64,000 nt of DNA from Reyranella sp. (GCA_052439685.1 JBQVQG010000028.1:541-64540); one strand, 5' to 3'. Shown: positions 38,793-41,744, counted from the first letter of the stretch. The notes: generated by a model not told the origin, from the letters alone. Translations and numbers: made by a program.

Positions 38793-39710
38793 TCAGGACG
38801 CAGGCGCGTCCATCACATCCAGCAGGCCCGGCCGCACGCCCAGCTGCTCGACGAGCTGATCGAGCTTGCGGCGGGCGACGGGATTGCTCTGCTGGTGGCG
38901 GGTCGCGAGGATCAGTTCGTTCTTCAGCGTGTGTTCGAGGCCGGTGAACTCGGTGACGCGCACCTTGTAGCCCTTGGCTTCGAGCACCAGGCCGCGCAGC
39001 ACGTTGGTGGCATGGGCGCCGAACTCGCGGCGGTGCATCGGATGGCGCCACAGCTGGTCGATCGGCCCCGGCTTCGCATGCTCGAGCAGCGACGCGACCT
39101 CGGCCTGGCAGCAGGGGATCAGCGCCACCACCTTGGCCTCGTGGCGCAACGCGAAGCGGATCGCATCGTCGGTGGCGGTGTCGCAGGCATGCAGCGCCGT
39201 CACCATGTCGGCGCGGCCCCCCTCGGCGTGACCACCCGGCAGCACCGTGTCGGCGATGCCGCCGGCCACGAAAGACATGCGCTCGAAGCCGCAGGCTTTC
39301 GCGAGCTGCTGCGAGCGCTCGACCAGTTCGGCGCGCACGTCGATGCCGACGATCGAGCCGCGCCCGGCCGGGCCGATCACCAGATCGTAGAGGATGAAGC
39401 CGAGATAGGATTTGCCGGTGCCGAGATCGGCGATCACCGGATCGTTTCCGTCTTCACCGTTCTCTGGCGCCAGCAGCGCGTCGATCGAGGGGCGCAGCAG
39501 CTGCACGAGATGCAGCACCTGCTTCAGCTTGCGCCGCGTGTCGAGGTTCAGCCCGCCGTCGCGCGTCAGCACGTGCAGCGCCTTCAGGAGCGTCACGGAA
39601 CTCTCGCGCGCCGGCCCCGGCCACATCTCCGCCAGCACCTTCTGCGCGGCGATCACGTCCGGCCGTTCGCGGGAGGAGGGCGGCCGCTTGTGGGAGTGCT
39701 GCTTGGTCAT
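38793..39710 (-). CDS. Class I SAM-dependent methyltransferase
   Basis: DLGTGKSYLGFILYD, GIDVR, ALHACDTATDDA, PCCQ. Confidence 0.88.
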   Translation of the reverse strand: MTKQHSHKRPPSSRERPDVIAAQKVLAEMWPGPARESSVTLLKALHVLTRDGGLNLDTRRKLKQVLHLVQLLRPSIDALLAPENGEDGNDPVIADLGTGKSYLGFILYDLVIGPAGRGSIVGIDVRAELVERSQQLAKACGFERMSFVAGGIADTVLPGGHAEGGRADMVTALHACDTATDDAIRFALRHEAKVVALIPCCQAEVASLLEHAKPGPIDQLWRHPMHRREFGAHATNVLRGLVLEAKGYKVRVTEFTGLEHTLKNELILATRHQQSNPVARRKLDQLVEQLGVRPGLLDVMDAPAS

Positions 39711-39763
39711 CGGGGGAGCTTGTGGGCGAGACCGCAGGTCGCCGCAAGCTCCCCGCTGCGTTT

Positions 39764-40192
39764 CTAGTGCCGCGCCGGCAGCGGCAGGATCACGGGCGTA
39801 GGCGGCGGCGGGATCAGGGGGAGGCCGAGCGTGTGGTTGAGTTCGGCCACGTCGTCGATCCAGGGCGAGACGCGGTCGGCGCCGGTCGCGGGCGGGGGCT
39901 CGTGGGTCATGAGCTGCGTCACCGTCACCGAATCCGGCCGGTGCGGGCCCGCGACATGGGCGAGGTGGAAGCGGCGGCCGTCGGTGAGGCTGGCGACGCA
40001 CTCCAGCAAGGTGGAGGTACCCGCGCGCCGCGTGCGATAGGCCTCGACCTGCTCCAGGTCATCGAAGGTGAAGCCGTAGGGCTGGTCCGCCGCAAGCTCG
40101 AAAGCACGCCGGATCAGAGCGGCTTCCCGGTCGAGCGGATCCCTTGCCCCCAGATCCCGGGCATTGGGCAGGTATTCGAAAGCGACGGACAT
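39764..40192 (-). CDS. Hypothetical protein (third gene of putative SOS operon)
   Basis: 142 aa; GGAGAG RBS; 10-bp gap from the upstream gene. Confidence 0.7.
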   Translation of the reverse strand: MSVAFEYLPNARDLGARDPLDREAALIRRAFELAADQPYGFTFDDLEQVEAYRTRRAGTSTLLECVASLTDGRRFHLAHVAGPHRPDSVTVTQLMTHEPPPATGADRVSPWIDDVAELNHTLGLPLIPPPPTPVILPLPARH

Positions 40193-40202
40193 GGGCTCTC
40201 CC

Positions 40203-40793
40203 TTACAGATGGTGCAGGCCGCGGCAGCAACGCCAGAACCATGCCCGGTGTTCCCGCTCCGCCCATTCGATCATCACGCCTGCATGGTTGCGCGGGTCGG
40301 AGATGGTGGGATGGGCCTTTTCGATGATCTTCGCGGCGTTGAAATGCGCGGTGTAGGAATAGGTGCCGACATGCCGCTCGGCGCGGTAATGGGCGACCAC
40401 CTGGCGGGTCATGCCGGTCAGGCGGCCCCAGGCGAGGATCTCCTCGCGCTCGGCCGCCATGCGCTCCCATTCCAGCGCCACTTCCTCGCGCGTGGCGCCA
40501 CGCGTGCAGTGAGCCTTGAGGCGATGAAGCCGCGTCTCCAGCGCATGTTCGCGGAGTTTCGCGGCCTGCTCGGGGCAGGTGAAGTAGAAGTGCCGGATGC
40601 CGTTGAACTCGCCGCTGCGCACGTCGCCGAACGGCTTCATCCAGCCGCTCAGCTCGGCCAGTTCCAACGACGTCCAGCCGCCGCGGTGGATGATGGCGGT
40701 GGTGTGCGGGAAGGCCCGCTCGAGTTCCTCCGAGGTATTGCAGCGCACGCGCACGGGCGGCGGCGGCGGGAGAGGCAGGTCGCCACGCATCAT
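40203..40793 (-). CDS. Hypothetical protein (second gene of putative SOS operon)
   Basis: 196 aa from ATG 40793 with GGGAGG RBS. Confidence 0.7.
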   Translation of the reverse strand: MMRGDLPLPPPPPVRVRCNTSEELERAFPHTTAIIHRGGWTSLELAELSGWMKPFGDVRSGEFNGIRHFYFTCPEQAAKLREHALETRLHRLKAHCTRGATREEVALEWERMAAEREEILAWGRLTGMTRQVVAHYRAERHVGTYSYTAHFNAAKIIEKAHPTISDPRNHAGVMIEWAEREHRAWFWRCCRGLHHL

Positions 40794-40804
40794 CGTCGCC
40801 TCCC

Positions 40805-41038
40805 TCAGTGATTGCGCACGAAGGAGCGCACGGAGGCGGCCGACAGGAAGCGCGTGACGCTGAAGGCGCGCGAGCCGCACTTGCCGCAGACCACGCCGGC
40901 CTCTGCGAGCGTCCGGCGGTCGCCCGCCACGGCCTTCAATGCGGCGGCGGTGACGACCACGCGACGCACGCAGCGGTCGCATTCGATGCCGACGGGATGC
41001 CTGCCCGTGGCGACGTCGTGAAGCGTGAGACCGGTCAT
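40805..41038 (-). CDS. Small zinc-ribbon-like protein (CxxC...CxxC)
   Basis: 77 aa, ECDRC and VCGKC; AGGAGG RBS before ATG 41038. Confidence 0.75.
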   Translation of the reverse strand: MTGLTLHDVATGRHPVGIECDRCVRRVVVTAAALKAVAGDRRTLAEAGVVCGKCGSRAFSVTRFLSAASVRSFVRNH

Positions 41039-41070
41039 CCAGCACCTCCTTGCTGGACCGACTCGTATGC

Positions 41071-41085
41071 GAACAAAACAGGAAC
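41071..41085 (-). promoter_or_regulatory. Alphaproteobacterial LexA (SOS) box
   Basis: GAAC-AAAACAG-GAAC (GTTC-N7-GTTC on minus strand), 33 bp upstream of ATG 41038. Confidence 0.8.
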
Positions 41086-41178
41086 AACAAGCCACTTAAT
41101 ACGGGGGGTGCGGCGGGGAGAGAGCGCTATCCTTGGGGGCGGCCTTGAGGTGGCCTAGGGGGCGCCGGTTCGCCGCTG

Positions 41179-41685
41179 CTACTTCACATGCAGGGTTGCC
41201 AGGAACGCCAACAGGGAAAAGCCAATGCTTCCCAGCGCGGCGAGGCGCCATGCCCAGCCGTAGAACCAGACCTTTCTGGCGACGGTGGAAGATCTTCTGG
41301 CCAGAACCGCCTCGTCGAGTGCTGCGGGATCACCCTCTTTCTCGCCAAAAGAGACGCCGAAAAAATCTCCTTCGAAGTTAATGACGGGAAAGGCAAAGCA
41401 ACAACTTGCAATCGTTGCTATCAGGCTCGCATGGCCAACGACGATGCCGAGCAGGCGCAACGTGCTGTTGCCGACCTGAAGAAGGTCGCTGCCATTTATG
41501 ATCAGGACGTAGGCGAGGGCCGCAACAACCATCGCGTTTACCCTGAGAAGCACGGAGGTCTTCGAATCGAGATTCGACAAGATGCCGTTCAGGCGATCGC
41601 AAGCCGTCAGGATGGCCCGCGCCTCCGGACTGCCCTGACCGAGTTGAATGTTTGCCAGGAAAAGAGCTTGCTTATGCAGTCTCAT
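41179..41685 (-). CDS. Three-TM membrane protein resembling Pycsar TM effectors
   Basis: LDSKTSVLLRVNAMVVA resembles the effector D.KA..LL..N pattern; GGAGG RBS; lower GC. Confidence 0.55.
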   Translation of the reverse strand: MRLHKQALFLANIQLGQGSPEARAILTACDRLNGILSNLDSKTSVLLRVNAMVVAALAYVLIINGSDLLQVGNSTLRLLGIVVGHASLIATIASCCFAFPVINFEGDFFGVSFGEKEGDPAALDEAVLARRSSTVARKVWFYGWAWRLAALGSIGFSLLAFLATLHVK

Positions 41686-41744
41686 ACGGCCTCCTGCATC
41701 GCCCCGGATTCGCCGGAGGCTTTTTGGTTTGAGTGACGCCGCCC

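Follow-up and report, generated by a model that had tools for sequence, protein, structure and literature searches.

The LexA-controlled promoters described from alphaproteobacteria (Caulobacter crescentus, Rhodobacter, Rhizobium) carry a direct repeat that overlaps the core promoter, and the consensus GTTCN7GTTC has been established for Caulobacter LexA (PMC12700426). A perfect copy of this repeat precedes three short, closely spaced genes, here called P1, P2 and P3, at positions 39764-41085 of a 64,000-nucleotide stretch of DNA from Reyranella sp. (GCA_052439685.1 JBQVQG010000028.1:541-64540), which at its full length is referred to as the window. The locus shares with the described promoters the identical motif, its overlap with the core promoter (as placed by the putative hexamers given below), the same box at lexA, recA and imuA in this genome, and conservation of the box in orthologues; it differs in that the genes apparently controlled here fall in no described gene family of the DNA-damage (SOS) response. 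From these comparisons the operon is almost certainly repressed by LexA, and the reading favoured here, with moderate confidence, is that of a LexA-repressed operon serving as an accessory module for nucleic-acid damage tolerance.

SRAP enzymes shield abasic sites in single-stranded DNA. The family was defined as SOS-linked by Aravind, Anand and Iyer (2013; PMC3765255), in whose account the ImuB-C domain is linked to SRAP and two uncharacterised zinc ribbons, ZnR1 and ZnR2, precede SRAP, for example in Afipia, in ZnR1/ZnR2-SRAP(-DinB, Ku) neighbourhoods; nothing like P2 or P3 is described there. As in those neighbourhoods, a small gene for a four-cysteine zinc ribbon (P1) heads an SOS-linked cassette, and in relatives of the present locus SRAP ends it. 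Here, in contrast, P2, for which no fold match was found, is the constant member, P3 stands in SRAP's stead, and there is no DinB or Ku. The operon is read as one version of the SOS accessory cassettes of ZnR-SRAP type, in which P2 is constant and P3 replaces SRAP.

Two other kinds of SOS gene invite comparison. The imuA-imuB-dnaE2 cassette is likewise a multi-gene, accessory, LexA-boxed unit, and its box in this genome is one base apart from that of P1-P3; the latter, however, have no polymerase, RecA-fold or Y-family domain, and P3 is not an ImuB-C domain. Small SOS proteins of the DinI, YolD-like and RecX type are presumed to work through contacts with DNA or with repair proteins. They resemble the present proteins in being short and LexA-controlled, and P3 is acidic with a tail like a docking peptide, but no sequence or fold similarity was detected and the comparison is by analogy only.

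Gene arrangement and the LexA box

The three genes are read from the minus strand. P1 (40805-41038, 77 amino acids, ATG at 41038) is followed after 11 nt by P2 (40203-40793, 196 amino acids), and P2 after 10 nt by P3 (39764-40192, 142 amino acids). Each has a Shine-Dalgarno sequence: AAGGAGG at 41045-41051 for P1 (minus strand, kept in orthologues), GGGAGG for P2 and AGGGAGAG for P3. The GC content at third codon positions is 0.86-0.88 in P1, P2 and P3, as against 0.66-0.69 in open reading frames shadowing them on the plus strand, and the real frames are thereby told apart from the shadows. Pairwise ratios of nonsynonymous to synonymous substitution (dN/dS) of the cassette genes against orthologues were 0.11-0.55 and thus indicate purifying, but rather relaxed, selection. 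GC content and codon bias of the cassette are host-like, and its surroundings are syntenic chromosomal backbone. No match of P1, P2 or P3 in Pfam, NCBIfam, PHROGs or PADLOC rose above noise, and profile searches against PDB sequences gave no match. None of the three has a transmembrane or hydrophobic segment, and a division inhibitor was ruled out on that ground.

The gene arrangement had been anticipated by the first-pass annotation, made from the sequence of the window alone, which had described three uncharacterised genes with 10-11-bp gaps and a good ribosome-binding site each, the first encoding a 77-residue CxxC/CxxC protein; all of these features were recovered, the cysteines lying at C20, C23, C51 and C54. 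Its statement that none of the proteins resembles RecA, ImuABC, Uvr or SRAP proteins also agrees with the searches, in which P1-P3 matched no such family, with the qualification as to SRAP that relatives of P2 usually adjoin SRAP genes. Likewise, the perfect GAAC-N7-GAAC site that it had placed 33 bp upstream of the first gene, and had equated with the alphaproteobacterial LexA box, was found at 41071-41085, where 32 nt separate it from the P1 ATG.

On the plus strand this box reads GAACAAAACAGGAAC and on the gene strand (minus) GTTCCTGTTTTGTTC, a perfect GTTC-N7-GTTC. A putative core promoter was picked out by reading the sequence at 41062-41090 (minus strand), with a -35 hexamer TTGTTG at 41085-41090, a 17-nt spacer and a -10 hexamer TACGAG at 41062-41067. 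A sigma-70 consensus scan found no strong match at the promoter, the scan being uninformative for this high-GC alphaproteobacterium, as was that for terminators. The LexA box fills the spacer between the two hexamers, so that a bound repressor would exclude RNA polymerase.

Taken alone, a single box is no more than chance would give: 1.49 perfect matches would be expected in the 64-kb window and one was observed, and across the 6.08-Mb genome there are 110, most of them GC-rich and intragenic. Both figures are what would be seen if the box were a chance match, or another regulator's site, and the operon stood outside the SOS response. The significance of the box rests instead on its core-promoter position, its likeness to the genuine SOS boxes of the genome, and its conservation. 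Boxes with AT-rich spacers are few in this genome and lie upstream of SOS-type genes, namely lexA (C2:326274), recA (C11:51180), the imuA-imuB-dnaE2 cluster (C35:24445; GAACAAAACACGAAC), two radical-SAM repair-type genes (C4:98097 and C16:86234), and a LigT-like 2H phosphoesterase (C4:96016). The boxes at lexA, recA and imuA show that the organism uses the classical alphaproteobacterial SOS box GTTCN7GTTC, and by its sequence the cassette box, 1 nt different from that of imuA, is a typical member of the AT-rich-spacer set. In the imuA-imuB-dnaE2 cluster (G000:C35:24500-30921) an extra gene, PIN-like by eye only, was seen between imuB and dnaE2.

Conservation of the box among relatives

Conservation of the box in orthologues had been set beforehand as a check on the proposed SOS control. 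A scan of relatives, with one genome per species, yielded 27 loci encoding P2 relatives, of which one is cut at a contig end and 26 could be evaluated for an upstream box. A perfect box lies directly upstream of the first cassette gene in all 26, at protein identities of 42-88%. Save for a few broader or doubtful labels of metagenome-assembled genomes, these loci are labelled Reyranella or Rhodospirillales.

The same gene order as in the window is found at 19 loci. The box is identical or nearly so in these, and the block ATTAAGTGGCTTGTT-box-GCATACGAGTC is nearly invariant; the phylogenetic footprint ends about 25 bp upstream of the box, and sequence further upstream is unrelated in some genomes. 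Across the P2 family as a whole the box stands in at least eight mutually unalignable promoters and in both orientations. The loci with other gene orders, together with three metagenomic ones, have promoters unalignable with that of the window, other spacers and even the reversed box, yet at these (L049, L050, L052, L057, L027, L029 and the group L051/53/55/56) the start codon lies 30-90 bp from a perfect box; the promoter of the L051/53/55/56 group has a clear -35 sequence, TTGACT. The motif occurs about 1.8e-5 times per bp in the genome, from which only an estimated 0.3% or so of promoters should have a perfect box within 150 bp. Against a chance match or foreign site stand this low expectation, a box retained at every one of the 26 loci among promoters that do not align, and the same type of motif at lexA and recA; that reading is effectively excluded, and only a very slight probability is given to it.

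Within the genus the distribution of the cassette is patchy. Directly upstream of the cassette promoter, on the minus strand at 41179-41700 of the window, lies a gene of about 173-261 amino acids with no Pfam match, a GC content of 0.57 and a third-position GC content of 0.66. Among the relatives compared it occurs only here and in L017/L054, and it looks like a recent insertion ending about 25 bp from the LexA box.

P2 and its SRAP and LigT neighbours

P2, like P3, occurs only in Reyranella and near relatives labelled Rhodospirillales, and its relatives are few: clustered proteins numbering 5.8 billion yielded 65, and a profile search of 1.84 billion representatives yielded 69. An AlphaFold model of P2 (predicted local distance difference test, pLDDT, 90) has a beta-alpha-beta-beta-alpha domain at residues ~20-86 followed by a five-helix C-terminal domain. 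A Foldseek search of the model against PDB and BFVD gave nothing significant, the best weak matches being RNA recognition motif (RRM) domains on the N-terminal part. Two motifs persist in the most distant relatives: W-G-x-x-T-G-x4-V-V-x-A-Y-R in the helical domain, which is helix-turn-helix (HTH)-like, and W-A-x-x-x-H-x-x-W-F at the C-terminus, which in the family alignment is an invariant W-A-x-x-E-H-R-x-W-F-W tail. W177, H182, W185 and F186 of P2 make up an invariant cluster. One distant relative reaches Pfam HTH_59, only below threshold. The two domains also occur separately, the N-domain alone in L081 and the C-domain fused to a Cys-rich N-terminus in P0217. P2, with its two domains, is probably a nucleic-acid-binding protein.

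P2 occurs without P3 at eight genome loci. In six of these (L049, L051, L053, L055, L056 and L057, L055 being from R. soli NBRC 108950) a gene for SRAP (PF02586) lies directly downstream of P2 in the same orientation, and in two of the six SRAP is present as a tandem pair. In L050 a LigT-like gene with a second LexA box takes SRAP's place, and both L050 and L052 adjoin a gene for DUF3987, which is primase-associated. SRAP likewise accompanies more distant P2-like genes: in L027 both lie in a metagenomic island, in L028 at the close of a prophage tail module, and L029 is a short contig. Because genomes hold 1-3 SRAP genes among ~5,500, the adjacency of P2 and SRAP is far beyond chance. Among cultured strains both forms of the cassette are available, P1-P2-SRAP in R. 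soli and P1-P2-P3, followed by the methyltransferase described below, in R. aquatilis KCTC 52223. Two further observations concern the SRAP genes themselves. The first of the tandem SRAP genes in L051 (6101-6736) starts MSNLY rather than MC and is thus a natural Cys2-to-Ser variant of the catalytic residue. A SRAP-like N-terminus by a distant P2-like gene in L023 fell below the Pfam SRAP threshold, is probably a broken gene, and was not counted.

Several of these neighbourhoods bear on the main alternative, in which a mobile element or prophage brought the cassette in as cargo, an SOS-triggered regulator (for example an antirepressor, or a secondary transcription factor acting through the HTH-like domain of P2) that became fixed in the chromosome of one Reyranella clade and would benefit the element rather than host repair. 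Such a history would fit the tail-module locus, where the distant P2-like gene and SRAP are accompanied by a Dam methylase, the primase-associated neighbours in L050 and L052, and the L027 island, which carries a resolvase. It would also fit the dN/dS values of 0.3-0.5, the patchy distribution in the genus, and L053/L113, which immediately follows an XRE-S24 repressor inside a region that IMG/VR calls as prophage, and was the single match in an IMG/VR search. On the other hand, 19 genomes hold the cassette in conserved chromosomal backbone with host-like GC content and no adjacent phage or mobility genes; P2 and the distant P2-like protein P0205 were without match in 50,697 phage records, and P2 was without match in 72,556 plasmid records. 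Cassettes of the prophage antirepressor kind (186 Tum, Gifsy type) lie within a prophage, next to its immunity region, a location seen in one relative only, L053/L113; at the present locus the nearest phage remnant is ~15 kb away. Moreover, S24-type repressors need no antirepressor, and the SRAP and LigT partners suggest nucleic-acid chemistry rather than regulation. Cargo of this kind is thus considered fairly unlikely; if the module did arrive so, it would still show LexA boxes travelling with small cassettes.

P3 and its LexA-boxed relatives

P3 is an acidic alpha/beta protein, modelled by AlphaFold (pLDDT 71) as one helix packed on four strands. A fold search with the model gave no match, with a weak resemblance to cystatin-like inhibitors. 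Its C-terminal tail is disordered, proline-rich and nearly invariant in the alignment (LGLPLIPPxPxPVILPLPARH; LGLPLIPPPPTPVILPLPARH in the present protein), and resembles a docking peptide directed at a host protein. At the other end of the protein, Met-Ser is invariant across 25 sequences and the next 15 residues vary. The possibility that P3 is a stand-alone ImuB-C domain was rejected, a P3 profile giving an hhalign probability of 4.8% against the C-terminus of the genome's own ImuB; DUF6504 in Pfam was matched by neither P2 nor P3.

P3 has relatives outside the cassette. A paralogue of 122 residues in the same genome (G000:C4:95589-95957; hhalign probability 92%) and a divergently transcribed LigT-like gene share one LexA box (GAACATAACATGAAC at C4:96016, the whole arrangement spanning G000:C4:95589-96711), and at least six further Reyranella genomes keep this box. 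An SOS-regulated enzyme of the 2',5'-RNA-ligase (LigT-like) type hints at damage-induced processing of RNA or other nucleic-acid ends. In G001 a P3-like gene standing by itself comes with a LexA box of its own, and diverged P2-like/P3-like pairs recur in G013:C52 and G005:C36. The first of these (L081, G013:C52, ~1405-2507) is a second, diverged cassette with an identical box, GTTCCTGTTTTGTTC, encoding a 77-residue P1-like ribbon, a distant P2 relative of ~100 residues with the N-domain only, and a 154-residue P3-like protein. In G017:C12 a weak P3-like match opposite a P2-like gene had no convincing open reading frame and was not counted.

The small size and tight coupling of these fast-evolving genes behind a LexA box recall Caulobacter higBA and Escherichia coli tisB and symE, and with the faint cystatin-like character of P3 they raise the question whether SOS induction here drives a growth-arrest or toxin/antitoxin module, P2 being the toxin and P1 or P3 the partner that neutralises it. 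However, P2 is found without P1 and without P3 at many loci (L049, L050 and L052 among them), and P3-like genes stand alone with their own box, so that there is no obligate pair of the kind that marks a type II toxin-antitoxin system. There is also no toxin or antitoxin family match in PADLOC, Pfam or NCBIfam, and no membrane segment that would suggest a division inhibitor. A toxin-antitoxin role is accordingly held to be very improbable.

P1, a zinc ribbon

P1 is a basic zinc-ribbon protein with the four cysteines in a CxxC...CxxC arrangement; residues invariant in the alignment are G17, C20, C23, R26, C51, C54 and G55. Of 301 alphaproteobacterial genomes, covering 253 genera, 21 (from 18 genera) encode P1-like ribbons, at 28 loci in all. 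At 17 of these loci a perfect LexA box closely precedes the gene, and five loci are near SRAP. P1 belongs to a family of LexA-boxed zinc ribbons spread across the Alphaproteobacteria, which probably overlaps the ZnR-SRAP neighbourhoods reported in 2013. In this respect the first-pass proposal of a new SOS-regulated module needs amending: SOS regulation is supported by retention of the box at 26 of 26 loci and by the motif at lexA, recA and imuA, but the module is not wholly new as far as P1 is concerned.

P1 is lost or truncated in the orthologous cassettes L040, L046 and L047. In L046 and L047 (also P0036, P0038 and P0039) the P1 gene is missing apart from its first ~9 codons (M-x-G-L-x-L-x-D-V), which have become joined to P2, and the zinc ribbon is therefore dispensable in those lineages. 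Two further P1-like genes occur in the genome of the window (G000:C8:211949-212173 and G000:C1:10467-10646). Neither has a convincing SOS-type box, the C8 locus having only the GC-rich GAACCCAGCAGGAAC; further copies of that sequence, perhaps parts of a repeated element, were seen towards the ends of contigs C4, C6 and C8.

The boxes of P1, P2 and P3 occur in separate contexts, and as judged from sequence each family is therefore independently tied to LexA boxes, two of them also to SRAP or LigT. Three uncatalogued protein families, with P1 widespread, would thereby be added to the alphaproteobacterial SOS regulon.

Proposed function of the module

In the undamaged cell, a LexA dimer would occupy the GTTC-N7-GTTC direct repeat and fill the core-promoter spacer. 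Upon DNA damage, RecA-stimulated self-cleavage of LexA would free the promoter, and one mRNA with a short leader, predicted to start about 7 nt after TACGAG, would then yield P1, P2 and P3. P2 would form the core of the module, probably as a nucleic-acid-binding protein that in most other lineages is co-transcribed with SRAP; P3 would take SRAP's position and may dock through its proline-rich tail on a host protein; and P1 would contribute the basic zinc ribbon of a LexA-boxed alphaproteobacterial family. The regulatory part of this scheme, repression by LexA and induction by damage, is considered highly probable on the sequence and comparative evidence. The functional part, an accessory nucleic-acid damage-tolerance module with P2 at its core, is put forward tentatively, at somewhat less than even chances, and within it binding of nucleic-acid damage, with docking of P3 to a host factor, is the best-supported guess.

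Several findings weigh against the scheme. The cassette in the window has no SRAP gene, and the genome's own intact SRAP (C11:90635-91318) lies elsewhere, with no LexA box in the 300 bp before it, in contrast to the SRAP genes after P2 in related genomes; the link to SRAP is therefore one of association in relatives. Prophage-like or integrative elements harbour some relatives, and the upper dN/dS values, 0.3-0.5, are high for core repair proteins and nearer those of accessory or conflict genes. The HTH and RRM likenesses of P2, moreover, lie below significance.

A more specific form of the scheme makes P2 a dedicated SRAP partner of novel fold that recognises abasic or otherwise damaged single-stranded DNA or the SRAP-DNA crosslink and passes it downstream, with P3 replacing SRAP as the lesion-handling subunit in the Reyranella clade of the window and P1 as a zinc-ribbon DNA sensor common to alphaproteobacterial ZnR-SRAP cassettes; the tail of P3 might then dock on the sliding clamp or a protease. 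In so definite a form the idea is judged unlikely. To our knowledge, how bacterial SRAP/YedK-type abasic-site crosslinks are targeted and resolved has not been worked out, and no bacterial partner protein has been defined. P2 shares an operon with SRAP in several lineages, no structural relative of it was detected, and it is a concrete candidate for such a partner.

The neighbouring methyltransferase

Fifty-three nucleotides after P3, a gene for a SAM-dependent methyltransferase of the Methyltransf_32 family (PF13679; Pfam E=4e-38) occupies 38793-39710 on the minus strand; its membership of the operon is uncertain. It follows P3 in all 19 cassette-bearing loci, and a conserved block, 38800-41107, runs from the promoter to the methyltransferase stop. 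The intervening spacer (39711-39763, minus strand) is itself conserved and, by RNA folding and comparison of orthologues, can form a hairpin with a 10-bp stem (39745-39754 with 39713-39722). It may alternatively be read as TTGCGG-N17-CACAAG, possibly a promoter of the methyltransferase's own for a leaderless mRNA.

The constant order and the conserved block would suit a four-gene operon ending in the methyltransferase, with P1-P3 as accessory or targeting subunits of a damage-induced methylation of DNA, RNA or protein. So would the lack of a canonical terminator between P3 and the methyltransferase in a terminator scan and RNA folding, and the distribution of the methyltransferase, which among 18 same-genus genomes is found almost only where the cassette is. 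Against this, P2 cassettes elsewhere have no methyltransferase, and in G001 the methyltransferase occurs without cassette or box. The methyltransferase evolves far more slowly, at 85-93% identity as against 46-88% for the cassette genes. It also has no Shine-Dalgarno site, which together with the TTGCGG-N17-CACAAG element suggests a leaderless promoter of its own, and that proximal part of the spacer is kept in L034 despite a hipBA-like insertion between P3 and the methyltransferase. A four-gene methylation system is regarded as quite improbable. On the strength of its slower evolution, the lone copy in G001, the missing Shine-Dalgarno site and the TTGCGG-N17-CACAAG element, the methyltransferase is treated as a neighbour inherited along with the cassette and transcribed from a promoter of its own, perhaps a leaderless one; transcripts from the SOS promoter may read through into it. 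The insertion in L034 (6046-7735) consists of a hipA-like kinase gene and an XRE antitoxin-like gene placed exactly in the P3-methyltransferase spacer.

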